Source: Pseudomonadota bacterium | GTDB taxonomy: Bacteria > Pseudomonadota > Alphaproteobacteria > Micavibrionales > Micavibrionaceae | Length of the DNA: 52,053 bases | Reading direction: 5' to 3' | Assembly (NCBI GenBank): GCA_039026795.1 | Contig: JBCCLQ010000001.1 | Location: 1 to 52,053 of the forward strand | Program-made: the position numbers and the translations under genes | Notes under the pieces: model-generated | What the model saw: the letters and a program-made list of their open reading frames with translations, nothing else | What the model was told of the DNA's origin: nothing | Database searches by the model: none | Shown here: positions 7,929 to 26,891 of the stretch, piece by piece | Layout of the letters: every line of letters begins with the position of its first letter | Numbering within the stretch: the stretch's first letter is position 1

Positions 7929-10583
7929 ATGAGAATGACTCGCACCGGCCTTGATACTCTTCAAACACGTAAAACCCTAACTGTTGATGGAAAAGATTAT
8001 GATTATTTCAGCCTGAAAGAAGCTGAAAAACAGCTCGGAGACCTTTCCAAGATGCCTTTTACACTGAAAGTCTTGCTGGAAAACCTTTTGCGCTATGAAG
8101 ATTGTCGATCCGTTGAGGTTGATGATATGAAGGCTTTGGTGGCGCGTGAGAATAAAGAAATTGCTTATCGTCCGGCCCGCGTTCTGATGCAGGATTTCAC
8201 CGGTGTACCGGCCGTTGTTGATTTGGCAGCCATGCGTGAAGCAATGAAAGCTCTGGGTGGAGATGCACAAAAAATTAACCCATTGAGTGCTGTTGATTTG
8301 GTGATTGATCACTCTGTCATGGTTGATGAATTCGGAACGCCTCGTGCGTTTCAGGTGAATGTGGAACGTGAATTTGAACGCAATGGTGAACGCTATGCGT
8401 TTTTGCGTTGGGGGCAAGACGCATTTGATAATTTCCGTGTTGTGCCGCCAGGCACTGGTATTTGTCACCAGGTGAATTTGGAGTATCTCGGGCAGACCGT
8501 TTGGGTTGAAAAAGATCAGGACGGAAAAAATGTAGCTTATCCAGATACATTAGTGGGAACAGACTCTCACACAACAATGGTGAATGGACTTGCTATTTTG
8601 GGCTGGGGTGTCGGTGGTATTGAGGCTGAAGCTGCGATGCTTGGGCAGCCTATTTCTATGCTTATTCCTGAAGTCATTGGCTTTAAATTGACGGGAGCGC
8701 TCAAGGAAGGCGCAACCGCAACAGACCTCGTTTTGACCGTGACTGAAATGCTCCGTGAAAAAGGTGTGGTTGGAAAGTTTGTTGAATTCTACGGCGATGG
8801 TTTAGACCACATGACCTTGCCGGATCGTGCGACTCTCGGGAACATGTCACCGGAGTTTGGTTCGACATGTGCGTTCTTCCCGATTGATGATGAAGCGCTG
8901 CGTTATTTGCGCTTCACAGGTCGGGAAGAACACCGCGTGAAACTGGTTGAAGCCTATGCGAAAGAGCAGGGCATGTGGCGTGAAAGCGGTCACGAACCCG
9001 AATTCAATGACACACTTCATCTGGATATGAGTACGGTTGAACCTGCGATTGCGGGACCAAAACGCCCGCAAGATAAAATCTTATTGTCCAATGCCGTATC
9101 CGCTTTTGATGCTTTGAAAAACGATGGTACGAAGCAGGACGTGGAAGGCGAAGACTATGATCTGGAAGATGGTGATGTTGTTATCGCTGCGATTACATCT
9201 TGTACCAATACATCCAACCCATCTGTCATGGTCGGTGCGGGACTGCTGGCTCGTAATGCATTGGCAAAGGGTTTGGAAGTGAAGCCATGGGTTAAAACAT
9301 CCTTGGCGCCGGGTTCGCAAGTCGTCACAGATTATTTGGAAAAGGCAGGGCTACAAGATGATCTGGATGCGCTTGGTTTTAACTTGGTTGGTTACGGGTG
9401 CACGACGTGTATTGGTAACTCCGGGCCATTACCTGACAATATTGCGAAGGCTGTTGAAGATGGTGATTTAACCGTCTGTGGCGTTTTGTCTGGTAACCGA
9501 AATTTTGAAGGGCGTATTAATCCGCACGTTCGTGCCAACTATCTGGCGTCTCCGCCATTGGTCGTTGCGTATGCTTTGGCCGGTTCCATGGAAGTTGATT
9601 TATACAATGATCCGTTAGGTCAGGATAAAGATGGCAATGACGTCTTCATGAAAGATATCTGGCCGACGAATAAAGAAATTCAGGATACAGTTGAGCAATG
9701 TTTAACGCCTGAGATGTTCCAATCACGTTATGCTGATGTATTCAAAGGCACGGAAGAATGGCAGGAAATTTGTAGTGCAGATAGTGGCGAGACGTATGAC
9801 TGGGTACCGGGTTCAACGTATGTGAAAAATCCACCGTATTTTGAAGGGATGAGCGCCGAACCCGGCGATATCAATGATGTGAAAGGTGCGCATTGCTTGG
9901 CGCTACTCGGTGATAGTGTCACAACAGACCACGTTTCTCCGGCTGGTTCAATCGCTAAAGATTCTCCTGCTGGTGAATATCTAAAATCCCATCAGGTTAG
10001 TGTTGCTGATTTCAACTCTTATGGCTCCCGTCGCGGTAATCACGAAGTCATGATGCGTGGAACATTCGGTAACATTCGTATTCGAAACGAAATGGTACCG
10101 GACACAGAAGGTGGTTTTACCAAGCATGTTCCGAGCGGCGATGAGCTTTCAATCTATGATGCTGCAATGAAATATCAGAAAGAGGCCACACCACTGGTAG
10201 TCATTGCCGGTAAAGAATACGGCACCGGATCATCTCGTGACTGGGCCGCGAAAGGGACACGATTGCTGGGTGTGAAAGCCGTAATTGCTGAAAGCTATGA
10301 ACGTATTCACCGCTCCAACTTGGTTGGTATGGGCGTATTACCATTGCAGTTTAAAGATGGCGACAGTCGTAAGTCTTTAAACCTAACAGGCGATGAAGTT
10401 TTTGATCTCACAGGTATTGAAGGCAATTTGAGCCCACGTCAGGATGTTGAAATGACAATTCATCGTGCAGACGGATCAGCAGATAAGGTACAACTCCTCT
10501 GCCGCATCGATACACTCGATGAGATTGAATATTACAAACATGGTGGAATTTTGCATTACGTGTTGAGAAGCTTGGCGGCTTAA
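7929..10583 (+). CDS. acnA: Aconitate hydratase A
   Basis: 884 aa with canonical AcnA/IRP blocks: [64 protein letters not shown]. Confidence 0.95.
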
Positions 10584-14835: not shown

Positions 14836-14837
14836 GA

Positions 14838-15152
14838 TTATTCGGTTATATAGAAAGCGACATATTCTTCAAGCTCGGTGAGCGTTTTGTTATGCATGAT
14901 TTTCTTAATTTCAGCATCCATTTCGGCTTGATCCATTTGGCCTTTGGCTTGTTGCTTTTTGATGATGTCTTGCATGATCATCATGGAAACAGTGACGAAA
15001 CGCTGTTGATCTTCCTCTGAGCGCTGTTTCACACGTTCCATTGTTTCATTGACGGCTGCAACGCTGTCTGCCTTCACCACGAAGTCTTCGGCATAGGCGG
15101 GCGTGGCCGCAAAAACCAAAAGAACCAAACAAAGAAGTAATCGCATAACCAT
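14838..15152 (-). CDS. Small secreted hypothetical protein
   Basis: Signal peptide MVMRLLLCLVLLVFAATPAYA|ED, followed by a charged helical region. Its stop lies 2 nt from the mmuM start. Confidence 0.55.
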   Translation of the reverse strand: MVMRLLLCLVLLVFAATPAYAEDFVVKADSVAAVNETMERVKQRSEEDQQRFVTVSMMIMQDIIKKQQAKGQMDQAEMDAEIKKIMHNKTLTELEEYVAFYITE

Positions 15153-15170
15153 AGTCTCTCACACTCTTTC

Positions 15171-15890
15171 TTAAGGCTTTAATAACGCCCGCGCGGAAAC
15201 CGTGAGTTGAATGGTGGTTTCACCGGCGGCGGCCACCGGAGCAACCATTTCCATGGATGATGCCATCGCCATACCACGTGCGTGATGCACGGGATGATAG
15301 GGGATGCCGGAGCTTTGCACGCTGACATCGCGCAAATCGGCCTTCGATTTGCCCAAAGCTGCTGCTGCCCGATCCGCGCGTTCCTGAAGTTGTTTGAGCG
15401 CCGCTTCCATCAGATTATCTTGCACCTCCACGGCTGTTTTGGGGGCGAGCATGTAGGACAAGCCGTTCATATTCAGTCCCATATCCTGTAATTTTCCCGC
15501 CAGTTCCAACACATCGTCCGCTTCCATGGATTTCAGCGTCAGGTTTTGTTGTCCGCGCCATAGCTTTTCTTTCGTACGCGGTTCCGTGGTTTCGTATACT
15601 TGATAGGAGCCAGTATTCACCTTCACCGTATTGACCTTTTTGGCAGTTTCCAGAGCCTTCGCCATAGTTTTGTTGATTTCGTTTTGGACGAATTTGGGAT
15701 CGCGATTGGTGATGGTGAAGGACAGGTTCGCGACCAGTAAATCCTGCTCGACCTCTTTGCGCTCCGTTGCTGAAATATTCAAAATGACCTGACCGTCGGG
15801 CATGGACAGGATCGGGTCTTCCACCTGTGCCATGGCGGGGGTGGCATAAAGCATTGATATGGTGAGTAGAACGGTGAACACGGCGCGCAT
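15171..15890 (-). CDS. SIMPL-domain (DUF541/BP26-like) periplasmic protein
   Basis: Signal peptide MRAVFTVLLTISMLYATPAMAQ, with SIMPL-like length and pattern. The start was moved to 15890 because AAGGAG lies 6 nt upstream. Confidence 0.8.
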   Translation of the reverse strand: MRAVFTVLLTISMLYATPAMAQVEDPILSMPDGQVILNISATERKEVEQDLLVANLSFTITNRDPKFVQNEINKTMAKALETAKKVNTVKVNTGSYQVYETTEPRTKEKLWRGQQNLTLKSMEADDVLELAGKLQDMGLNMNGLSYMLAPKTAVEVQDNLMEAALKQLQERADRAAAALGKSKADLRDVSVQSSGIPYHPVHHARGMAMASSMEMVAPVAAAGETTIQLTVSARALLKP

Positions 15891-15963
15891 GGCAAGCTCC
15901 TTTATGGGTTTCGATGCGCGTACTATAGCGGCTTCGATGGCATGCGGGAAGAGGGGAGGCAAA

Positions 15964-16041
15964 TCCTTCAGTTCGTTGGCGAGGCGGGGGTGGCCGAGGG
16001 GGTGAGGGCATTGATATAAAAGGATATTCCTTTAGTTCGTT
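15964..16041. repeat. Two copies of TCCTT(C/T)AGTTCGTT spaced 64 bp apart, upstream of the SIMPL gene
   Basis: Copies at 15964-15977 and 16028-16041 match at 13 of 14 positions. Confidence 0.4.
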
Positions 16042-16122
16042 TGTGGGGTGTATTCTTGCCTTTTGTCGTTCAAAACTCATAGAACTATTATAGGATATTT
16101 TTCCTATTTTGGGAAGTGGAAA

Positions 16123-16140
16123 CCACAGAGTTCACGGAGG
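16123..16140 (+). repeat. Solo copy of the CCACRGAGTTCACGGAG motif
   Basis: CCACAGAGTTCACGGAGG compared with CCACGGAGTTCACGGAG at 49302-49318, which flanks the GxxExxY gene. Confidence 0.6.
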
Positions 16141-16185
16141 AGAAAAGAGGTCAAAGAGGTATGAGTGTCATTCGCAAAGCGATGC

Positions 16186-16240
16186 ATCCTGACGAAAGTC
16201 AGGATCTTTTTCGCATGAGATCCCAAATCAAGTTTGGGAT
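16186..16240. repeat. Two adjacent REP/MITE-like hairpins with ATCC...GGAT ends
   Basis: ATCCTGAC-gaaa-GTCAGGAT (16186-16205) and ATCCCAAA-tcaag-TTTGGGAT (16220-16240). Confidence 0.6.
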
Positions 16241-16250
16241 GCAATGATAC

Positions 16251-16649
16251 TTATTGTGCGTCCTGCATCTCCCTCTGGCGCATGGGCATGGCGTCGATGA
16301 GGGCGAAGAGCTCTTCGGCCGCCACGGGTTTGTCCCAACGGCCTTTTTCACCGCCATCCTTGCCGATCAGAATGACAATGAATTGATGCGGTTCGACATC
16401 AAATTGCATGTAACGCGCCATGGTATCGGGCGCGGGCGTTATGCCGCGGACGATCAGATCACGCTCCGCAAAACCGTCCGCATGATCGACCACAATTTTG
16501 GCCTGCGCTTCGACCTTGTCCTGCACGCTCTCATCCCCATTGAAAACGAGCAGCACGCGGTTTTGCCAACGTAACTCTTCCAGACTTTGGGCATGCGTGG
16601 TCATGGGTAAGATCATAAACAGAGCGAGGAGACTGGTGAAGTCAGGCAT
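16251..16649 (-). CDS. DUF4174-domain secreted protein
   Basis: WQNRVLLVF...ERDLIV...FIVILIGKDGGEKGRW is a DUF4174-like pattern, with signal peptide MPDFTSLLALFMILPMTTHAQS. The start is uncertain (16649, 16676 or 16721); the longer versions run into a palindromic element. Confidence 0.65.
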   Translation of the reverse strand: MPDFTSLLALFMILPMTTHAQSLEELRWQNRVLLVFNGDESVQDKVEAQAKIVVDHADGFAERDLIVRGITPAPDTMARYMQFDVEPHQFIVILIGKDGGEKGRWDKPVAAEELFALIDAMPMRQREMQDAQ

Positions 16650-16674
16650 AGATATGACTATACACTGGATTGTC

Positions 16675-16696
16675 ATGCCCGCCAACGTGCGGGCAT
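16675..16696. repeat. REP-like hairpin
   Basis: ATGCCCGC-caacgt-GCGGGCAT, followed by CCGGATCC. Confidence 0.5.
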
Positions 16697-16762
16697 CCGG
16701 ATCCCCGCATAAAGCAGGCATAACGGGTTGGCTAAGAGCTTTCGGTCCTAATCATTTTCTGG

Positions 16763-16804
16763 ATCCCGTTTGTGCAAGCTCACTGTTGTTCGCGCCAACG
16801 GGAT
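16763..16804. repeat. REP-like inverted repeat
   Basis: ATCCCGTT and AACGGGAT separated by 26 nt. Confidence 0.4.
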
Positions 16805-16838
16805 GACGGATTCCTAAGACCAAGGTCTAAGGTATCGG

Positions 16839-16877
16839 TCACTTATCGTCACCCATTTTAAGGGCATTGATGAAGGC
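16839..16877 (-). pseudogene. Relic copy of the lepA 3' end (encodes [12 protein letters not shown])
   Basis: The minus-strand translation gives [12 protein letters not shown]-stop, compared with the [11 protein letters not shown]-stop that ends the intact lepA. It lies in an intergenic position. Confidence 0.75.
16852..16877. repeat. Direct repeat copy A (CCCATTTTAAGGGCATTGATGAAGGC)
   Basis: Matches 17804-17829 at 25 of 26 positions. Confidence 0.9.
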
Positions 16878-16882
16878 GAAAA

Positions 16883-17620
16883 CTAAGGTTTCCAAAATTC
16901 TAAACGCAAGCCTAAATAACCGTTCAGCAAGCTTGGTGCATTTTGTCCTGTTAAAGCTTTCGACAGTTCACCGGATGGAATATATCTAACCCCTGCCTCA
17001 ATGTTGGAATGACCCAAATCAAAGCCCACGCCAGCGCTGCTGAAAACATATAATAGACGACCACCAATAAGCGCTTCATCACGAATAACACCCTCGTAGC
17101 CATCAACCCAAGCCGCACCAGCGCCTACGCTGGCATAAATATTACTTAATAGATCACGATTGACGTGTCCGGCAACATAGGGGCCTTCAGAGCGCAGGAA
17201 ATGACTGTTTTCAAATGTGGTATATCCAGCTTCAGCGCCAAATGACCAAGGGCTATCTGGAGATGGCGTGTATTCTGCACCAAGACCTAAAGTCATAATA
17301 TGGTTAACTTCATTATAGCCACCTTTTGGAGCTCCGATGCTATTTGTGTGGTAAACACCCCCAGAGTAGGTGGCGGAGACATAAGGTGACCAATTGTCGT
17401 GTGTTTGTTGTTTCGCTCCGCCTTGTGCAGAACGATGATTGTCGGCATTGCTAGCATTCCCATAACGATCGACCAACATTCTTTGCAGAGAATCGGTTAT
17501 AATGGGGGCGGATGTGGTTATTGTTCCAGACCCCGCAGAGGCAGAAAAAGGATATAAAGCTGAAAACGCAACTGTAGTTACGGCAGCAAATACCCGTCGA
17601 ATCGACTGTGATATATTCAT
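16883..17620 (-). CDS. Outer-membrane beta-barrel protein (OmpA_membrane/porin-like, 8-10 strands)
   Basis: Signal peptide ending SASA|GS, alternating aromatic/Gly-rich strands, and a C-terminal ...GLRLEFWKP. GC is lower than in lepA. Confidence 0.65.
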   Translation of the reverse strand: MNISQSIRRVFAAVTTVAFSALYPFSASAGSGTITTSAPIITDSLQRMLVDRYGNASNADNHRSAQGGAKQQTHDNWSPYVSATYSGGVYHTNSIGAPKGGYNEVNHIMTLGLGAEYTPSPDSPWSFGAEAGYTTFENSHFLRSEGPYVAGHVNRDLLSNIYASVGAGAAWVDGYEGVIRDEALIGGRLLYVFSSAGVGFDLGHSNIEAGVRYIPSGELSKALTGQNAPSLLNGYLGLRLEFWKP

Positions 17621-17793
17621 GACACACCTCTTTATATGAATATACCTTACTTAAATTTTATGTAAAAATCAAATTTGTTTATTTTTTTCTATCGCATCTT
17701 GTTTCATCTTACGCTCTGGATCAAAGGTGGCGCATGGAATGATAAGTTGGTTGATAAAAAATCCCCATTTTCCGCGGGAAGCCATATGGGCGT

Positions 17794-19602
17794 TTATTCA
17801 TCTCCCATTTTGAGGGCATTGATGAAGGCTGATTGGGGGATTTCAACGTTCCCATATTGGCGCATTTTCTTTTTCCCCTTTTTCTGTTTTTCAAGGAGTT
17901 TGCGTTTTCGCGAGACGTCACCACCATAACATTTGGCCGTCACATCCTTGCGCATCGCACTGATATGTTCGGCGGCGATGATTTTACCACCCAGGGCGGC
18001 CTGTACCGCGATTTTAAACATCTGGCGAGGGATGAGCTCCTTGAGGCGTTCGCACAGCTGCCGCCCGCGGCTTTCGGCGTTATCCTTATGCACGATCATG
18101 GCGAGCGCATCGACGGGTTCCTGATTGACGCGGATGTCGAGTTTCACCAGATCGTTTTTATCGTATCCGTCCAGCGCGTAATCGAAGGACGCATAGCCAC
18201 GCGAAATGGATTTCAGGCGGTCATAAAAATCAAATACCACTTCGTTGAGCGGCAGGCGGTACACGACCAACGCGCGGTTACCGGCATAGTTCAATTCGAT
18301 TTGCACGCCGCGGCGTTCCTGACACAGTGTGAGGATGCCACCCAAATATTCATCCGGTACAAGGATAGTGGCCTTGATCCACGGCTCTTCAATGCTTTCG
18401 ACCTTTTGCACATCGGGCATATCAACGGGATTGTACAGCTCCATCTGCTCTCCATTGGTGAGGTTGATTTTATAAACCACGGATGGCGCAGTGGGGATTA
18501 GGTCGAGGTCAAATTCACGCTCGAGGCGTTCCTGAATAATCTCCATATGGAGCAGGCCGAGGAAACCGCAGCGGAAACCGAGGCCGAGGGCTTGCGAGCT
18601 TTCGGTTTCATAATGCAGCGATGCGTCATTCAGTTTGATCTTACCAAGTGAATCGCGCAGCTTCTCATAATCTGACGCATCGGCGGGGAAGAGGGAGCAG
18701 AACACCATCGGCACGGAGGGCTTGAACCCCGGCAAGGCTTCTTCGCATTGGTTCTTTTCATCCGTGATGGTGTCACCGACTTTGGTTTCGGATATGTCTT
18801 TAATGCTCGCCGTGATGAAACCCATTTCACCGGGGCCAAGCTCATCAAGTAAAACATGTTTGGGGGTGAACATCCCGACGCGGTCAATGTCGCGGGTGGC
18901 TTCGGCCTTCATGAAACGGATTTTCTGTCCTTTTTTGAGGTAGCCGTCAATCACGCGCACCAGAATGACAACACCGAGATAGGCGTCATACCAGGAGTCG
19001 ACGAGTAGCGCTTTGGTTGGTTTCTCCGCATCGCCTTCAGACGGGGGCGGGAGTTTGGTGACAATCTCTTCCAGAAGCTGGTCGATATTGATACCCGTTT
19101 TACCGGAGACGGGGACAGCATCAGTCGCATCGAGGCCAATCACATCTTCGATTTGTTCGCTCGCACGATCAATATCGGCGGCCGGCAGGTCGATTTTGTT
19201 AATCACAGGCAGGATTTCATGATCGTTTTCGATGGCCTGATAGACATTCGCCAGCGTTTGCGCCTCCACGCCTTGGGTCGAATCCACGACCAGCAGCGAG
19301 CCTTCACAGGACGCCAGCGAGCGCGAGACTTCATAGGCAAAATCCACGTGACCCGGCGTGTCCATCAAATTGAGCTGGTATTCAACGCCGTCCTTGGCTT
19401 TATAAGACAGGCGGACGGTTTGCGCCTTGATCGTGATGCCGCGCTCGCGCTCGATCTCCATGTTATCGAGGACTTGTTCCTGCATCTCGCGTTCTTCTAG
19501 CCCGCCGCAGGTTTGAATCAGGCGGTCGGCAAGGGTGGATTTTCCGTGATCTATATGTGCTATGATGGCAAAGTTACGGATATGTTCTAATTTTTTACTC
19601 AC
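17794..19602 (-). CDS. lepA: Elongation factor 4
   Basis: [25 protein letters not shown] and NKIDL are the GTPase motifs, and the rest follows the full LepA pattern. Preferred start is GTG 19602 (GGAG 6 nt upstream), giving 602 aa. The track ORF extends to 19644. Confidence 0.95.
17804..17829. repeat. Direct repeat copy B, inside the lepA 3' coding end
   Basis: CCCATTTTGAGGGCATTGATGAAGGC. Confidence 0.9.
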
Positions 19603-19748
19603 GTCGCGCTCCAAAGTATTTGTGTTGCGAACAATGCGATGCATTGCTTCGCGTGCGCGATAATCGCGAAGTTTCTTATTTCATGTAGGGGCTTACTCAT
19701 ACGCTAATGATGTAGCGGATTAAGCGTAGAAAGGGAAGGGGGGAGCGC

Positions 19749-22178
19749 CTAAGCGTCCAGAGTTTGTAGAGAAGCGTTTCTTGCGCTCGCTATAGCGCGC
19801 TCAACAGCAGCGTCTGCATCTGCAACTGCTTCAGCTGTCTCTCCATCTGGCATTGATAGAGCAGCCGGGTCAGCAGATGCAACAAATGAAGCATTCATGA
19901 CTGAAGATTCTACAGCTTCTGGTTCCGTCGAAGCACTTATAAAATCAGGTGATACCCTGCTTGCACTCACCGGGAGTAGTGAGGTACCTAAGCTGCTTGG
20001 TGCCCCTGCAGGAATGCCTGAATCGCTTGTGCCCGTCCCAGATATTCCTTTTGTACTCGTATTCACAGCAGCGATGGAACCGGGCGTTCCATATTTTTGA
20101 ACGTCTTGTACAATGCGGTTAAAATCATCGCGAACAGCACTGGTTACAGACGCATAGACTTGAGCATATGTTTTTGGATTGCTGCGATCCGGCTGGCCAT
20201 TACTTCCTCTATGGTAATATAAAGTTGGGTTCGCCGCGGCCGGTTTTCGCTCATATTTTGCCGCTGATCTGTTTGCCCATTTTGGGTCCGACGCGCGGCT
20301 GGCCAATCGATTACTACCTGAGAAATAGTATGCATATTGTCTTTTTAAATCAGTCCTTGATCCGGATTCCTTCATGTATTTTGCCATCATGTAGGGGGCA
20401 ACCAACGGATTTTGACGCCATTCGGAATTCGGATTAAAGCCAACGCCGTATTTCCCTAGAGCAGCACGTGCTTCTGCGCCATAGGTTTCTTCTAAATATC
20501 CTTTGGTACCATCAATGATTTGGCCGAAATTACGCGCTAATCGCGTTGCCGATGACGCACGATGCGTGTTGTAATTACCAAAATTTGATTCTTGGCTGAC
20601 CATCGCCACAATGTTCTGAATTGGTACGCCGCTTTCCAAGTGTGCAATTAAAATACCATCTGCAAGTCTTTGGTCTACGCCTGTTGCGGCAAAGCGTGCA
20701 AGATAAGCCTCATGCACTTGCTGAGCATCCAGGCTTGCAACACGTGGGTTTAAATCAATTGCAGAGTCACGAACCTGCATTGTGTTTTGAAATACTCTGC
20801 TCTCAGTTTGCTCTGGCCTGTAGGAACGATCAACTTCCATAAGTCCCGCACCAAATAGGTTTCCAATTTTGGCAACACCACCAACCATGGCCGGTACACC
20901 AAGTTGCACAGCTGTTACCAATGCCTGCATCATTTCCGGTAACCAAGGCATCATTTCCAATAGCTCAGGTGGAAACTCAAGGTTTGCGACTGTTTCATGA
21001 AGGTTGTCAAAAATTCCATCCCATTGATCACCGATGCCGTTGACTATAGCGAGCCAGTTTGCAGGATCGCTGGCAATCTCACTTCTCATTGTGTTGGTGG
21101 CGGAATTAAATATAGCGGCTACTACCGCAGGCGCTCCCGAATTAGGGTCTGTTGCAGCTGCGGATAAAGCTGTAAAATCTAAATCCCCTGTATTGGGATC
21201 GTAAAAGTTTGAAATATAACTTTCGGCACTTGCAAGATCCAGATCTGGGTTGCCGAGAACATCTTCTATTATTCCAGCTTTGACCTTACCCATTAAAGCA
21301 TCTAATTCTGCGCCACCCAGATTAATACCTCTCTCAGCCAGTGCGTCTGTAAAGACATTCGGGGGCAATGGTTGTGAAATCAGGGTTGATAAAACGCTTT
21401 GAGTTGAAGGATCCTGCGCTTCGCTCAATGATAATGTTGCCAAGCTGGCCGGATTGCTTTTGAATGCAGACAAGAAAGCATCCCGAGATGCCGGATCTGC
21501 TTCAAGATTCGAAAAGAAGGCTTCTTGTGTAGAAGCATCGCCCAAAAGACCTTCTGTTGAGCGCATTGCATCAAAAAGAGCATCACCTTCCAAAGCTCCA
21601 AAGCGCTCATTTAATTCAGCCGCGGTTCCGTCAACCAGTGCAGTTCTGAAATCATCCGATGTAAAATCATCCGGATCTTGTGCCAGAGTTGTGATGGCGC
21701 GCGTTATAGATTCTTGCCCGAATTCATGTTCAGACAAGTGCGTAAACATTGTTTGGTATCTTGCTGCCGTTTCAGGGTCAGTTGACAGATTGCTAAAATC
21801 CAGCTGGTCAACACCAACATTGGTTGCAAATCCATGAAGTGCCGTACGGAAACCCGGGTCCTGATCCATATTGGTCAAAAATGTATTGAGTTCCCCCATC
21901 TGCACATCGGCTGCTGCATCACCTGTTAAGCTTTCAAGCTTTAATTCCGTAGCGATAGATAGAGCTTCAAATGTTGCATCTGGATCATTTACCTGTTGTG
22001 CAGCTTCTGTGAAAGCTTGCATGAGTGTTCCACGCAGATCGAAGTCGGGTTGAGAGGCATTAGCCGTTATGTCAGGGATTTTATTGACAATAATGTCGCC
22101 AACAGCATTGTTACCCAAACGGCCTAAAACTGAACTATTATCAGTGGTAAACTTTAATATATCTGCTGCGGTTGCCAT
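19749..22178 (-). CDS. Large acidic Cys-free protein with degenerate DPxxxF repeats, a central hydrophobic segment and a weak SLT-like motif
   Basis: 809-aa uninterrupted ORF with GAGGGA about 10 nt upstream of the ATG. It contains VSQESNFGN...FGQ and YAYYFSGSN, reminiscent of lytic transglycosylase motifs, and a Ser/Thr/Ala-rich tail. Confidence 0.7.
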   Translation of the reverse strand: MATAADILKFTTDNSSVLGRLGNNAVGDIIVNKIPDITANASQPDFDLRGTLMQAFTEAAQQVNDPDATFEALSIATELKLESLTGDAAADVQMGELNTFLTNMDQDPGFRTALHGFATNVGVDQLDFSNLSTDPETAARYQTMFTHLSEHEFGQESITRAITTLAQDPDDFTSDDFRTALVDGTAAELNERFGALEGDALFDAMRSTEGLLGDASTQEAFFSNLEADPASRDAFLSAFKSNPASLATLSLSEAQDPSTQSVLSTLISQPLPPNVFTDALAERGINLGGAELDALMGKVKAGIIEDVLGNPDLDLASAESYISNFYDPNTGDLDFTALSAAATDPNSGAPAVVAAIFNSATNTMRSEIASDPANWLAIVNGIGDQWDGIFDNLHETVANLEFPPELLEMMPWLPEMMQALVTAVQLGVPAMVGGVAKIGNLFGAGLMEVDRSYRPEQTESRVFQNTMQVRDSAIDLNPRVASLDAQQVHEAYLARFAATGVDQRLADGILIAHLESGVPIQNIVAMVSQESNFGNYNTHRASSATRLARNFGQIIDGTKGYLEETYGAEARAALGKYGVGFNPNSEWRQNPLVAPYMMAKYMKESGSRTDLKRQYAYYFSGSNRLASRASDPKWANRSAAKYERKPAAANPTLYYHRGSNGQPDRSNPKTYAQVYASVTSAVRDDFNRIVQDVQKYGTPGSIAAVNTSTKGISGTGTSDSGIPAGAPSSLGTSLLPVSASRVSPDFISASTEPEAVESSVMNASFVASADPAALSMPDGETAEAVADADAAVERAIASARNASLQTLDA

Positions 22179-22228
22179 TTTCGGGGTTTCCCTCTACCTG
22201 TTTTGTCGTTTTTTATTTTACTTGCCCT

Positions 22229-22258
22229 ATTCTATGAAAAACCAAGGGCGCAGTGCAA
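22229..22258 (-). promoter_or_regulatory. Sigma70-like promoter TTGCAC-N18-TAGAAT for the 809-aa gene
   Basis: Reverse complement of 22229-22258. It lies about 50 nt upstream of the start codon. Confidence 0.4.
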
Positions 22259-22450
22259 ATTTGAGGGCTTTTTGACTTATTTTTTACAATAAAAACAATG
22301 GTTTAAATGTTTTTTATATCTTTGTGGCCCCGTAAAATTTGATTCTTCTTTTCCGCATTCAATATACTGTAATCATAATATTATTGAAGGCGTGTAAAAT
22401 CCAATAAACGCCAAATTTATGAATTAAAACAATAACTTGACTAATCAATT

Positions 22451-22480
22451 TTGCATTGGGTTTAGCAAATACCGTATTAT
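22451..22480 (+). promoter_or_regulatory. Sigma70-like promoter TTGCAT-N18-TATTAT for the 22543 gene pair
   Basis: Located 62 nt upstream of the ATG, within a 364-bp AT-rich divergent intergenic region. Confidence 0.4.
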
Positions 22481-22542
22481 AGGGGCAAGATTATAGAAAA
22501 AACGAAAACGGATACGAAAAACAGGATTTAGAGGTAAGTACA

Positions 22543-23514
22543 ATGGCAAGCGATGCAGATAGTCCAGAAGTAAATACTACGCACCCTCAAGCTCCAGGAG
22601 GCGGAAATCCTACAGGAGGTAACAGTCTTCCAGATAATATAGATCTTGATACGCCTGAAGGTAGAGCGGCTTTAGCAAGGACACCTGAGGGTAGGCATAT
22701 ATTAAGTGAGGCCCGTTTAGACGCAGAAAGTGCTGCCAGAGTTCGTGATGCAGATGCAAATGCTGGTGCAAGAACAGCAGAAGGAAAAGCAGCCACAACC
22801 GTTGCTAATGCACAAGCAGATGCAGCCAGAAATGGTTCTGGAGGTAGGGGCAAAGGCATTATGAGGGCTGCCAGAAGTGTTTTTACATGGGCATTAGTTG
22901 GTGCTGCTGCTGACGTTGTGATGAGTGAGAATACACTCGGTGGTACTCCAATTCCTGGTACTTCTATCACTGTGCCAGGTGCAAACAGGCCGTCAGTTTT
23001 ATTAGGTGAACCGGATAGAAATCCTGAAGGGTCACCTACACCTATTCAGGGAGAAAATCCAGGTGCGCTGGATGATGCTGGCAGCTTGGCAAGAGATAGG
23101 CTGGCTGCTTCAGCAGAGTTAACCCAAAGACAAGCTGAGTACGCTCGCTTAGATCCGGGAAGACTTCCAGAATTCGGGCAAAATGATGTCACTGTTATCG
23201 CTGGCGGAATACGTGGAACACTGGATTTGCCTGAGTATTCAGATATCAGTCCAGAGGCGAAACAGTGCATGCTTGGTGCGTTTAGTGCTGCAGCACAAAT
23301 AGCAAATGCAGAACATCCGGTGGCAACTCAAAGAAGTGAATTCTTAGATGCTTTTGGAAGGTATGCGAGTGGCGAGGATGATCAATATGGTTGGGCAAAA
23401 TGTGTTAAAGATCACCCTGAGTTAGAAAGTGTGGCAGGGCAAGTTGAACAGGATTTTCTTACTAGAGGTTCAGGTATGCAGGCAACGATATCAAGAGCAC
23501 CCGGTTGGAAATAA
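22543..23514 (+). CDS. Hypothetical protein (disordered Gly/Pro/Ala-rich N-terminus, one hydrophobic segment)
   Basis: 323-aa ORF with GAGGT about 7 nt upstream. Arg codons are strongly biased to AGA/AGG, unlike the neighbouring core genes. Confidence 0.6.
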   Translation: MASDADSPEVNTTHPQAPGGGNPTGGNSLPDNIDLDTPEGRAALARTPEGRHILSEARLDAESAARVRDADANAGARTAEGKAATTVANAQADAARNGSGGRGKGIMRAARSVFTWALVGAAADVVMSENTLGGTPIPGTSITVPGANRPSVLLGEPDRNPEGSPTPIQGENPGALDDAGSLARDRLAASAELTQRQAEYARLDPGRLPEFGQNDVTVIAGGIRGTLDLPEYSDISPEAKQCMLGAFSAAAQIANAEHPVATQRSEFLDAFGRYASGEDDQYGWAKCVKDHPELESVAGQVEQDFLTRGSGMQATISRAPGWK

Positions 23515-23532
23515 GGTTATAAGGAGAAGGTA

Positions 23533-24342
23533 ATGGTTTCAGATTTTAATCTTAATAGTGCAGCAAATTGGCTAAGCGGAGATCCTACTCAAGGTGAAGG
23601 GCAAGGTGTTTCTCTGGAGAGTTTGACTGATCAGTTTCGTGGAGATACGTCAGCAATCAGGGATGTATTACGCTCGCGTTTAAACGCAGTTATCACAAAT
23701 TTAGAAGTACTTGGTAAGGCAGGTATTGAACCTTCGCAAGCACAACTGCAATCATTTGCACAGATATTGACGCAATATGTTAGCTTGGATGCGCAGTTGA
23801 CAATGAATGTGCCAAGACACCAGCAAGATGCTTTCCATCAATACGAACAAATGTTGTTGAATGGTGATGCAAACTTACAGCTCAAATCTGTTGAAGGTAT
23901 TGCTAGTGCTGATAGTTGGTGGGGTTGGGCCGGACAAACTCTTATAAAAATTATAGATGGTCTGGAAAGTCTAGGAGTAGAAAGAGAATCTCTAGCTATG
24001 TTTGAAAATATGGCTAACCGCTGGGTTGAGAGTGCGCAAGCAAGTCCAGAAGACGGAAACGGAAAATATATTCAAGCAGATGAAGGTCGCATAATAACAG
24101 GGCGTCGTCCTGATTTTGATGCAGCTGCAGGCATATCAGATAGTGCTGAATTATCGCTAGATCCCATGGTAGGTCAAAAAGTGCTTGAGTTTACACAGCT
24201 AACGCAATCGCTGATGACTGAATTAGACGAGCTAGCTAGAATACATGAGTTACAAGATTGGCAAAGTAGTGTTACCACTACTGATCCGAGTGCTGGAAGT
24301 GCACCAAGGCCATCGGCAAGAGACTTAGTTCCAGTTCGATAA
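23533..24342 (+). CDS. Hypothetical helical protein
   Basis: 269-aa ORF starting 18 nt after the previous stop, with AAGGAGAAGG upstream. No Cys and no recognisable family. Confidence 0.6.
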   Translation: MVSDFNLNSAANWLSGDPTQGEGQGVSLESLTDQFRGDTSAIRDVLRSRLNAVITNLEVLGKAGIEPSQAQLQSFAQILTQYVSLDAQLTMNVPRHQQDAFHQYEQMLLNGDANLQLKSVEGIASADSWWGWAGQTLIKIIDGLESLGVERESLAMFENMANRWVESAQASPEDGNGKYIQADEGRIITGRRPDFDAAAGISDSAELSLDPMVGQKVLEFTQLTQSLMTELDELARIHELQDWQSSVTTTDPSAGSAPRPSARDLVPVR

Positions 24343-24379
24343 AGAATAAAATAGAATAAAACTTTTTTAATAATAAATA

Positions 24380-24414
24380 AAAGCCTAATACCTATCTATG
24401 TGGTATTAGGCTTT
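24380..24414. terminator. Bidirectional hairpin terminator between convergent orphan genes
   Basis: 13-bp stem AAAGCCTAATACC / GGTATTAGGCTTT with a 9-nt loop. On the minus strand it is followed by a T-rich tract. The stop codon of the 249-aa ORF lies at the stem-loop junction. Confidence 0.65.
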
Positions 24415-25141
24415 CTGCTGTTGGTCCTGTTGGAGCAGTGTTTTCTGATATTCCCAAATAATCCTGTATTAACGCTTTATCTTCTGCATAAGGCTCCGTC
24501 CCTGTAATATGATGTGCCCAAAGAGCCCTACCTGAAGCTTGGATTATAGGACTATCATATATTTCATAAAAACCGGCGACTGATGCAGATGCGCTGGAAC
24601 TTGCGGTTAATACAGGTGTGCCAAGCAAAGATGGTATGCCATGTGTGGCCGCTGCCCTAGCAGCTAGCGGAGCGCTCGCCACCATGGGAGCCAATGTTCC
24701 AGCCGTGTGTAAACAATTATCCAGATCATCAATGGCTTGCGGCATTTGACCGTCCACTGCGATAACAAGGCCTTCATAGCCATCTGTGAGTGATGTGTGA
24801 ATATGTTCCGATCCTAAAAATGGATTATCTGTCATTGGGCCGATATCAACCTCTACGCCCGGAATAACATTGACAGCATTTAGTATGCGGGGTGCATGGT
24901 TAACGCCGTCCACAACATAACCGGGTAGAGAAGCCAGCCCAATGAGACCGCGATTTACGCCATCGGCAAAAAAATTAAAGCTGTTCCACATACGGCCGGG
25001 GCTAATATCCCCTTCGATATTGTTAATACACGGCACTTCATGTCCAAAAACCGTAATAGGTTGATGATAGGCACCATTGGCCGTAGCATCGGAAAATCCG
25101 TTATTTACGTTTGTACCTGTTTGTATGCCATCCTGAGGCAT
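24392..25141 (-). CDS. Hypothetical protein
   Basis: 249-aa ORF with its own promoter-like element. No family recognised. Confidence 0.55.
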   Translation of the reverse strand: MPQDGIQTGTNVNNGFSDATANGAYHQPITVFGHEVPCINNIEGDISPGRMWNSFNFFADGVNRGLIGLASLPGYVVDGVNHAPRILNAVNVIPGVEVDIGPMTDNPFLGSEHIHTSLTDGYEGLVIAVDGQMPQAIDDLDNCLHTAGTLAPMVASAPLAARAAATHGIPSLLGTPVLTASSSASASVAGFYEIYDSPIIQASGRALWAHHITGTEPYAEDKALIQDYLGISENTAPTGPTAESLIPHR

Positions 25142-25200
25142 GATAAGTCCCTGTTTTTATATAATTTTTTATTTACGTCTCATTACGTAAATTTACATAA

Positions 25201-25230
25201 ATTATACTCGAAAAGGGTTAACAGATGCAA
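25201..25230 (-). promoter_or_regulatory. Sigma70-like promoter TTGCAT-N18-TATAAT for the 249-aa gene
   Basis: Reverse complement of 25201-25230. It lies about 60 nt upstream of the ATG at 25141. Confidence 0.45.
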
Positions 25231-25271
25231 AAATCGCACCTGTTTTTGTTGTTTTTCAATAGGTTAGTGGA

Positions 25272-26891
25272 TTAATGCCGGAAATGCCTCATATCCGTGA
25301 AAATCATGGCCAAACCGCGTTCATCAGCGGCTTTGATGATTTCTTCATCACGAATAGAACCACCGGGTTGAATGACAGCTGTTACGCCTGCATCTGCTGC
25401 GGCCAATAAACCATCCGCAAAGGGGAAAAACGCATCAGAGGCGACGACAGAGCCCTTGGTGAGGGCTTCTTCCTGTCCGATGGCTTCGGCGGCATCCTGC
25501 GATTTGCGGGCAGCGATTCGGGAAGAGTCCAGACGGCTCATCTGCCCCGCACCGATTCCCACTGTTGCGCTGTTTTTGGCATACACAATCGCGTTGGATT
25601 TCACGTGCTTGCCGACTTTAAAAGCGAAGAGCATATCACGGACTTCATCATCCGTGGGTTCGCGTTCACTGACCACACGCAATTCATCGGGGTTCAAACG
25701 ACCAAGATCATCATCCTGAACCAGAAGACCCGCGGCGACACGTTTAACCAGAAGGCGTTTCTGATTTTTATCCGGCATATCACCGGTTGTGAGGACACGG
25801 ACATTGGGTTTGTCTTTGAGAACTTCAATCGCTTCGCCTTCGATATCCGGTGCGATGATCACTTCGCTGAATGTCTTGATTATTTTGTTCGCGCTTGTGG
25901 CATCCAATGTACGGTTTAACGCAATGATACCGCCGAAGGCTGAAACGGGATCACAGCGCAAGGCAAGATCATATGCTTCTTCAATACTGTCTGCGCTGGC
26001 TACGCCGCAAGGGTTGGCGTGTTTGATAATAGTGACCGTTGGTTGATCAAATTCAGCGACCAGTTCAAATGCCGCGTCTGTGTCATTGATGTTATTATAT
26101 GAGAGTTCTTTACCTTGAATTTGGCTGGCATTTGTTACGCCTGCACGCTCCGAGCCGTCAACTTTATAGAGCGCAGCACTTTGGTGTGGGTTTTCGCCAT
26201 AGCGCAATGTTTGTTTGAGTGTTCCGGAGAAACTGATTCTACGCGGGAATTTGTTCGCATCCGTTTGCTGTGCGAACCAACTCGCGATGTTGGAGTCATA
26301 TGTTGCGGTGAGTGCGTAAGCATTCGCGGCCAGTTTTTTCCGCAAAGCATATGTTGTCGCGCCGTCATGTTCTTCAAGATCCTGTAAGACATCATCGTAA
26401 TCCTGCGGATCAGTAATGACAGTCACAAACTCATGATTTTTGGCAGCGGCGCGGATCATGGCCGGCCCACCGATATCAATATTTTCGATGCAGGTTTCAA
26501 AATCTGCGCCTGATGCTACGGTTTGTGAAAACGGGTAAAGATTCACGATTATCAGATCAATTTCACCGATATCATTATCATTCATGGCCTGAACATGCGC
26601 ATCATCGGAGCGGCGGGCAAGAATGCCACCATGGATTTTGGGGTGCAGTGTTTTGACGCGACCATCCATAATTTCGGGAAAGCCTGTGTGTGATGACACA
26701 TCTTTTACTTCCAGGCCGCTGTCTTTAAGCAATTTCGACGTGCCGCCCGTTGAGAGAATCTCAATGCCGTATTTGGCAAGTTTTTGAACAAACTCTACAA
26801 CGCCGTCTTTATCCGATACGGAGATCAGGGCACGTTTGATTTTGATTTCTTTGGGATCGCGAATTGTATCGTTATTCTCTTGAGCACTCAT
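25272..26891 (-). CDS. purH: Bifunctional AICAR transformylase/IMP cyclohydrolase
   Basis: [40 protein letters not shown] and a C-terminal FTDMRHFRH. Confidence 0.95.

Follow-up and report, generated by a model that had tools for sequence, protein, structure and literature searches.

Lying between the housekeeping genes lepA and purH in a 52,053-nucleotide stretch of DNA from a Micavibrionaceae assembly (GCA_039026795.1, contig JBCCLQ010000001.1), the whole of which is referred to here as the window, is a cluster of four genes, A–D, encoding proteins of 809, 323, 269 and 249 residues (Table 1). An initial annotation had drawn these open reading frames (ORFs) and grouped them into three transcription units (A, B–C and D); the coordinates are exact and the three units hold. 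We describe here the layout and conservation of the cluster and the domain organization of its largest product, protein A, using the 52 kb of the source genome and about 20 kb from each of its relatives.

Layout and conservation of the cluster

The four ORFs are genuine genes and not chance reading frames, since they span 249–809 residues in DNA of 45% GC and stay open in two further genomes, with order and orientation unchanged. These are L001, a TARA Oceans scaffold, and L005, a GenBank contig of a metagenome-assembled genome (MAG), both from marine metagenomes. In each, cheA-W-Y-B-R, purH, four unannotated genes and lepA follow one another in the order and orientations of the window, with similar gene sizes (329 and 310 residues in L001 and L005, respectively, for D, 289 and 293 for C, 280 and 270 for B, and 507 and 639 for A). 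The full four-gene layout is known in these three genomes. Among 185,579 species genomes, the best matches to LepA of the window come from uncultured alphaproteobacterial MAGs (94% and 88%), followed by Micavibrio species (82–83%), and MipZ and the overall gene content are consistent with the Alphaproteobacteria. Taken together, the closest LepA sequences, MipZ and gene content indicate that the host is an uncultured marine relative of Micavibrio. The Micavibrio in culture prey epibiotically and have only type I and type II secretion (PMC3189940).

Table 1. Features of the cluster and its borders, by position in the window (pLDDT, predicted local distance difference test)
Feature	Positions	Strand	Remark
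lepA	17794-19644	-	Flank of the cluster
Gene A, 809 aa	19749-22178	-	Helical N-terminal domain, lytic transglycosylase domain and disordered tail
A residues 698-809, low-complexity tail, predicted disordered, with terminal helix 782-806	19752-20087	-	pLDDT <50 for residues 696-809
A residues 479-697, predicted phiKZ gp144-type lytic transglycosylase domain	20088-20744	-	Profile match to gp144 in the PDB
Predicted catalytic Glu530 codon of A	20589-20591	-	Aligned to gp144 Glu115
A N-terminal domain, residues 1-465	20784-22178	-	Identity to L001 and L005; remote relatives P0012 and P0014
A–B divergent control region, 364 bp, 31.6% GC	22179-22542		Conserved blocks in three genomes
A promoter-like element, TTTGCAC-N18-TAGAAT then AGGG	22225-22259	-	Alignment and pattern scan
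B–C promoter-like element, TTTGCAT-N18-TATTAT then AGGG	22450-22484	+	Mirror of the A element
Gene B, 323 aa	22543-23514	+	ORF; acidic
Gene C, 269 aa	23533-24342	+	ORF; acidic; starts 18 bp past B
Hairpin, 13-bp perfect stem, 9-nt loop	24380-24392 / 24402-24414	-	Predicted D terminator
Gene D, 249 aa	24392-25141	-	ORF; acidic
D control region	25142-25271	-	77% nucleotide identity to relatives
purH	25272-26891	-	Flank of the cluster

Proteins of the shared flanks are 63–95% identical between the window and these relatives (median about 80%), including a 314-residue protein without a Pfam match (82%) and CheZ (80%), and the flanking DNA aligns continuously at 72–83% identity, a similarity that ends sharply at the edges of the cluster. 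Inside it, A is 41–46% identical to its counterparts in L001 and L005, confined to the first ~460 residues, and D is 38–50% identical over a partial core. B and C give no signal against their positional counterparts by BLASTP, hhalign or a shuffle test, in which they reach a z-score of about 1, the same as negative controls, compared with z = 30 for D; as no similarity is detectable, a diverged orthologue and a replaced gene are indistinguishable for these two. L001 and L005 are 56–72% identical to each other across all four genes. Nonsynonymous divergence (dN) is 0.03–0.15 in the flanks and 0.19–1.06 in the cluster; synonymous divergence (dS) is saturated, leaving the dN/dS ratio uninterpretable. 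The cluster proteins diverge several-fold faster than their neighbours, with ORFs that remain open and promoters that are conserved.

The initial annotation had called the cluster an orphan island. Its presence with the same layout in the same slot of L001 and L005, and the sharp conservation of flanks and promoters, indicate that it is not a recent insertion but a hypervariable locus at a fixed position; an A-family gene also lies beside lepA in two further lineages. By the initial annotation, finding the four genes in every relative as ordinary conserved hypotheticals would speak against an undescribed system. Only half of this holds: the layout is kept in both relatives found with it, but the sequences are not conserved.

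Between A and B, the divergent AT-rich region reported initially is confirmed, and the spacer has the same length, 364 bp, in L001. Embedded in it are two mirrored promoter-like elements, one for each direction, and a third, TTTGCAT-N18-TATAAT, lies upstream of D at 25201–25231 (minus strand). The A element is found also upstream of the A-like genes in L005 and on the more distant contigs L087/L088, and as a one-base variant in L001. The identity of the purH–D spacer between genomes (77%) equals that of the purH coding sequence. In its general form, TTTGCR-N19-TAnnAT, the pattern occurs three times in the window, each time at a cluster promoter, with 0.55 occurrences expected; a stricter form ending in ATAGGG is found twice with none expected, and also 5′ of the distant A-like genes in L087/L088. 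As the pattern was derived from these three sites, finding it there is circular; this does not apply to its absence from the promoters of the other ~35 genes, which points to common, specific regulation of the three units. A sigma-54- or CtrA-type reading of the promoter blocks was dropped by eye, spacing and motif conservation being unfitting. Open ORFs, conserved ribosome-binding regions and conserved promoters are together taken to show that production of the cluster proteins is under selection, though their sequences are not.

The hairpin at the convergent C–D junction, which had been proposed as a terminator shared by both genes, is real, with a folding energy of −19.8 kcal/mol (z = −4.6 relative to shuffles, minus strand). 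One of its arms falls within the final codons of D and a U-rich tail is present on the minus strand only, so that the hairpin is clearly the predicted terminator of D and possibly, though at best weakly, that of C.

In composition, the cluster has the GC content of the window (44.7%). GC content at third codon positions (GC3) is 0.26–0.36 in A–D, below almost all of the 36 other ORFs of the window (mean 0.47, s.d. 0.08). The proteins are acidic and poor in cysteine, as first described (isoelectric points of 4.4–4.7; 0–2 cysteines each); acidity is not special to them, the majority of window proteins having an isoelectric point of about 5. Past purH lie cheR, cheB, cheW and cheA, making for a chemotaxis-rich neighbourhood. 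The reported lack of mobility genes was borne out: scans found no tRNA and no Rfam family within the window and no integrase or transposase among the scanned neighbour genes. On the lepA side of the cluster, inverted repeats were not found, nor were long direct repeats in the stretch scanned there; the inverted repeats of the purH side are all AT-rich and imperfect.

None of A–D has a hydrophobic N-terminus or signal peptide, in agreement with the initial annotation, nor does any contain a segment of membrane grade on the Hessa scale. Their best 19-residue segments score 6.8–10.5 kcal/mol, compared with 5.6–8.9 for cytoplasmic controls, −1.5 to 0.6 for the membrane helices of NhaA and 3.2–4.6 for signal peptides. 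Membrane anchoring as an explanation for the lacking signal peptides is ruled out by these scores, B-like proteins alone being borderline.

Searches of Pfam, NCBIfam, PADLOC and PHROGs (0 of 38,880 families in the last) gave no significant match for any of the four; the only PADLOC result, for its models of anti-phage defence components, was a sub-threshold hit of C to a ‘control protein’ model (E = 0.035). In A–D, Pfam gave no HemolysinCabind or other repeat family, GGxGxD calcium-binding repeats being a mark of RTX substrates of type I secretion such as the hemolysin-related proteins described in Micavibrio; no internal repeats were found in A by BLAST self-comparison. Exhaustive HMMER searching of 1.84 billion representatives returned only 11 matches to A, and among 5.8 billion clustered proteins there was one relative of A, two of the D family and none of C, a singleton; no relatives of B came up with the tools used. 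Scanning GTDB genomes and JGI metagenomes with patterns of the A family gave no loci, and its relatives were found through a LepA scan of GTDB genomes, two protein searches and contig look-ups. Profile searches of the PDB with the D family, the A N-terminal domain and the L001 and L005 forms of B and C gave no match. Short stretches of C resembling designed helical-repeat proteins in the PDB were judged compositional.

The N-terminal third of B is Gly/Pro-rich and charged, and is followed by a weakly hydrophobic, Gly-rich segment (residues ~105–123). D begins with MPQDG and contains a ~70-residue core, LPGYxVDGxNHxPRxL...IPGV...GPMTDxPxLGSE...LTxGYEG, common to L001 and L005 only. MPQDG starts D in all three genomes (window 25127–25141; L001:6816–6830), with the following ~50 residues unalignable. 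Elsewhere, MPQDATT begins the distant A-family protein P0014, and MPDGEN the neighbouring protein L087_817 (L087:6694–6720 and L087:1081–1100), both proteins continuing LDT[IV]V[IV]. These starts may be a shared N-terminal signal, or a coincidence.

Domain organization of protein A

The AlphaFold2 model of A is all-α, with a pLDDT of 75–94 for residues 1–270. No PDB entry matches its N-terminal domain significantly, by sequence or by fold. The hidden Markov model of this domain (positions 1–467) has members in five lineages, namely the window, L001, L005, P0012 and P0014, and wherever the context is known the A-family gene lies directly upstream of lepA, with LepA proteins 84–95% identical. 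The C-terminal ends that follow are mutually unrelated: 45–54 residues in L001 and L005, a ~205-residue segment without assignment in P0012, ~230 residues with a sub-threshold EF-hand/dockerin-like motif in P0014, and the lytic domain with its disordered tail in the window. We regard A as modular, a clade-specific, all-helical ‘carrier’ joined to a lineage-specific end. The motif in P0014 (residues ~700–725; L087:~8790–8870) reads DLNGDGTVDYIGIDLNNDGEID and gives sub-threshold Pfam scores for the EF-hand (E = 0.0026) and dockerin-type (E = 0.069) families. Calcium-binding motifs of the EF-hand/dockerin kind are commoner in extracellular proteins.

That none of the four proteins could be assigned to a family, as initially stated, stands for the library searches above, but not for the C-terminal half of A, which resembles the lytic transglycosylase gp144. 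Aside from the short stretches of C, the sole match in single-sequence searches of the PDB was a weak one between residues 516–673 of A and gp144 (E = 0.008). A profile of residues 479–697 and six bacterial relatives (P0007–P0011 at 44–48% identity and P0013 at 29%) matches gp144 residues 98–251 with E = 4.2e-20 (75.7 bits), spanning the entire catalytic domain. Glu530-Ser531 of A falls on Glu115-Ser116 of gp144, and this pair is invariant in 7 of 7 family members. The homology of the C-terminal domain to the gp144-type lytic transglycosylases, of the lysozyme-like superfamily, can be considered settled on this comparison, and the domain is predicted to cleave the glycan strands of peptidoglycan; as a lytic transglycosylase it would split MurNAc–GlcNAc bonds non-hydrolytically, yielding 1,6-anhydroMurNAc. 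Modelled on its own, it reaches a pLDDT of 82.5 and a predicted template-modelling (TM) score of 0.81, and its top Foldseek matches in the PDB (MltE, MltF, MltC, SltB3, phi6 lysin and Slt35) are nearly all lytic transglycosylases, with modest scores (E ≥0.16, probability ≤0.82, TM ~0.4). Full-length A has no match to Pfam SLT (PF01464) or SLT_4 (PF19489) at E up to 1; the isolated domain scores 12.1 bits against SLT_4 (E = 0.15), under the cutoff of 27.

The endolysin gp144 of phage phiKZ (PDB 3BKH and 9XPS) is a 260-residue lysis enzyme with an N-terminal peptidoglycan-binding domain. It shares with A the homology over the full catalytic domain, the glutamate and the lack of a signal peptide. 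A differs in carrying a 465-residue helical domain in place of the peptidoglycan-binding module and an additional disordered tail of 110 residues, in being encoded on the chromosome at a fixed place free of neighbouring phage genes, and in a pairwise similarity that is weak. A tblastn search with the lytic domain found no match in 50,697 phage genomes, and IMG/VR yielded two jumbo-phage contigs only, at 27–30% identity compared with 44–48% for the bacterial chromosomal relatives; these results indicate that the domain is not a recent acquisition from phage. Those closest relatives, P0007–P0011, are all leaderless and have the architecture of gp144, with one to three N-terminal PG_binding_1 domains by which they would reach the wall, whereas no PG_binding domain is found in A by Pfam. 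P0007 and P0010 are encoded between the housekeeping genes sucC and mdh, another orphan slot (L089:3066–6524 and L091:2448–7850). Neither has a signal peptide, and each is accompanied by two to three genes without a Pfam match and without similarity to B, C or D.

Within the tail of A, residues ~755–770 (~19869–19916, minus strand) contain the motif [LMF]x[AG]SFxxA[SA] (...NASFVASA...), common to the tails of P0008–P0011. In these proteins it lies beyond the catalytic domain, 34–48 residues from the C-terminus (terminal ~35–40 residues in P0008–P0011). The motif could be a relic of common descent or a C-terminal targeting signal.

The lepA slot in other lineages and the lepA 3′ end

On contig L087 the slot reads purH-817-581-295-A-like-lepA, and its three other orphans show no relation to B, C or D, nor do those of L089 and L091. 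In the more distant L006, L007, L009 and L012, purH and lepA are linked, with 2.9–9.6 kb and other unannotated genes between them. The intervals in L007 (412–10000), L009 (2517–10000) and L012 (848–10000) contain giants of 1086, 1548 and 1751 residues and two small proteins conserved as a pair (~160 and ~124 residues; 41–67% identical between genomes); the giants and the pair have no Pfam match. The cultured predator M. aeruginosavorus ARL-13 has lepA and cheR set apart by nine genes for hypothetical proteins (within GMV_701–GMV_711), with low to moderate expression indices that for several genes are unequal in the attack- and attachment-phase columns (PMC3189940, supplementary file 4). The slot beside lepA is thus orphan-rich throughout the Micavibrio group.

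On the far side of lepA, a 32-nt direct repeat, 91% identical between its copies (16846–16877 and 17798–17829), duplicates the last lepA codons 952 bp downstream. Enclosed by the copies is a gene (16883–17620, minus strand) for a 245-residue protein with a signal-peptide-like N-terminus and no Pfam match. At the lepA 3′ end of L001 the sequence matches the distal copy with 92% identity, and L006 likewise has two copies. The gene has the appearance of a cassette that entered at the 3′ end of lepA and duplicated its target. It belongs to a second variable stretch across lepA (14836–17793), which holds this 245-residue orphan, a DUF4174 gene and a SIMPL/DUF541 gene, two genes of the stretch having an unusually high GC3 of 0.61–0.65; in L001 the same stretch contains only a DUF4174 gene (43% identical) and a 102-residue gene.

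Possible functions of the cluster

The reading that we prefer, tentatively and with less than even confidence, is that the cluster encodes leaderless proteins that are regulated together and act at the cell envelope, A being a carrier with a wall-cutting domain. The cluster, lineage-restricted and at a fixed position (purH, D, C-B, A, lepA) within a small uncultured marine clade, would be co-regulated. A peptidoglycan-cleaving domain is useless in the cytoplasm, so that A would either leave by a leaderless route or act only after lysis; having neither signal peptide nor membrane helix, the enzyme would have to reach the wall by a non-Sec route. We infer that A is exported to the envelope, of a contacted cell or the producer’s own, where it would open peptidoglycan locally. 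B, C and D, which the same promoter type would drive, may serve as partners, adaptors or further substrates, with sequences that would turn over fast, or be replaced, under interaction-driven or relaxed selection. The suggestion in the initial annotation that the proteins are secreted effector or toxin cargo is plausible, and gains some support from a leaderless wall-cleaving domain on a carrier with a variable C-terminus.

FlgJ-type and VirB1/EtgA-type enzymes and phage tape-measure or ejection proteins with lytic domains resemble A in placing a wall-cleaving domain on a non-enzymatic one, presumably for local opening of peptidoglycan. Export without a Sec signal is also a property of FlgJ and of phage ejection proteins. 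Unlike these, A has an N-terminal domain without homology to the FlgJ rod-binding, VirB1 or tape-measure families (Pfam, PHROGs) and a catalytic domain of the gp144 subtype. A precedent for the preferred reading is the hcp island of Pantoea type VI secretion system (T6SS)-1, which encodes a leaderless PG_binding and gp144-like protein proposed as a contact-dependent effector (PMC3942780). This protein in Pantoea ananatis, PANA5342_1731, has the architecture of P0007–P0011 and is a proposed bactericidal effector from a variable T6SS island (PMC3942780); its likeness to A is one of architecture and of the gp144 homology given in that paper, and no T6SS gene is visible near A.

Several observations weigh against the envelope reading. 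The A proteins of L001 and L005 lack the lytic domain, ending ~45–54 residues past the N-terminal domain, and as only the window’s A has it among the three, wall cleavage cannot be the core function of the cluster. There is no secretion machinery in the window and no immunity-type gene with a signal peptide within the cluster. Owing to the saturation of dS, positive selection is not separable from relaxed constraint. For at least one MAG of marine Micavibrionales, the predicted lifestyle is that of a photoheterotrophic epibiont, not of a predator (PMC9933672).

An alternative that we consider somewhat unlikely is that these are ordinary lineage-specific genes under weak constraint and form no system, with A remodelling the producer’s own wall, for example to make room for a polar organelle such as a flagellum or pilus, and B, C and D being unrelated, fast-drifting cytoplasmic or structural proteins in a permissive slot. 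The chemotaxis-rich surroundings fit this, as do the unannotated genes found clade-wide in the lepA–che slot, among them the orphans and giants of 1086–1751 residues in distant relatives and the nine hypothetical genes of M. aeruginosavorus ARL-13 (PMC3189940). Low GC3 is compatible with low expression or weak codon selection, and the dS saturation leaves relaxed constraint fully possible. Set against it are ORFs that remain intact, with size and order kept in three genomes, promoters and ribosome-binding regions as conserved as housekeeping coding DNA, and a promoter form common to the three units and absent elsewhere in the window. Moreover, a housekeeping wall enzyme normally has a signal peptide or an anchor, and A has neither; nor would a housekeeping function be expected to be dispensable in sister genomes. 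It is unlikely, in our estimate, that the cluster is a new polymorphic effector/partner locus, in which a dedicated promoter type would drive three units, with a new leaderless helical carrier (the N-terminal domain of A) for interchangeable C-terminal modules, here the wall-cutting one, and a B–C cassette replaced wholesale between sisters, all exported by an unrecognised route and used against neighbour or host cells.

A polymorphic toxin-type locus of the established kind, with the N-terminal domain of A for trafficking, exchangeable toxin tips and a B–C cassette providing immunity or adaptors for kin discrimination or competition, seems quite improbable. Its logic is that of LXG, MIX, Rhs and CdiA-type effectors, in which a conserved leaderless helical N-terminal domain precedes a variable C-terminal module and small genes are swapped: the N-terminal domain of A is conserved and its end lineage-specific, the B–C pair differs wholly between the window and L001/L005 behind a conserved promoter, and peptidoglycan glycoside hydrolase tips are known in contact-dependent effectors (PMC3942780). 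The carrier of A, however, has no sequence or fold relation to the carrier domains of those effectors, no PAAR, Rhs, LXG, MIX, VENN or similar trafficking marker was found with Pfam and NCBIfam, PADLOC gave no match, and no secretion genes are in view. No gene lies between the A stop codon and lepA, 104 bp on, leaving no place for a downstream immunity gene, and B and C lack signal peptides, yet the periplasm is where immunity to a toxin that degrades the wall acts. The A proteins of L001 and L005, two of the five in the family, are nearly tip-less, and B, C and D are retained in these genomes. A degenerate prophage, tailocin or gene-transfer-agent remnant, in which A would be a tape-measure-like or ejection protein and the other genes decayed tail or lysis genes, is highly improbable, and every search directed at phage contradicts it. 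Tape-measure proteins typically have a long helical region ahead of a lytic domain, the only solved homologue of the lytic domain is a jumbo-phage endolysin, and the best BFVD fold matches of full-length A are tape-measure and minor tail proteins; these matches are non-significant, however (TM ≤0.1, probability ≤0.3). The empty PHROGs search of A–D, the phage-genome and IMG/VR results for the lytic domain, the lack of integrase, att site and tRNA, and the fixed position with conserved promoters across genomes all speak against such a remnant.

Modular peptidoglycan-lytic proteins are already known; new here are the N-terminal carrier domain and the orphan partners. The locus is more notable than average hypothetical genes because unrecognisable coding sequences are combined with conserved promoters and position, a new carrier domain and a leaderless wall-cutting module; its functional reading is for the most part inference, and fast-evolving orphans are common in MAGs. 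Were the genes ordinary, the locus would be a permissive slot gathering fast-drifting, lineage-specific genes, of modest interest. Whatever its function, it presents a clean natural case of coding divergence beyond recognition with promoters and position fixed, useful for work on the origin and turnover of orphan genes. The gp144-type family, with seven bacterial members below the Pfam threshold, extends what has been mainly a jumbo-phage endolysin fold into bacterial chromosomes. If the effector reading is true, the cluster would add a new carrier domain for modular wall-degrading proteins and would open an initial molecular route to understanding the dealings of the predator Micavibrio’s uncultured marine relatives with other cells.

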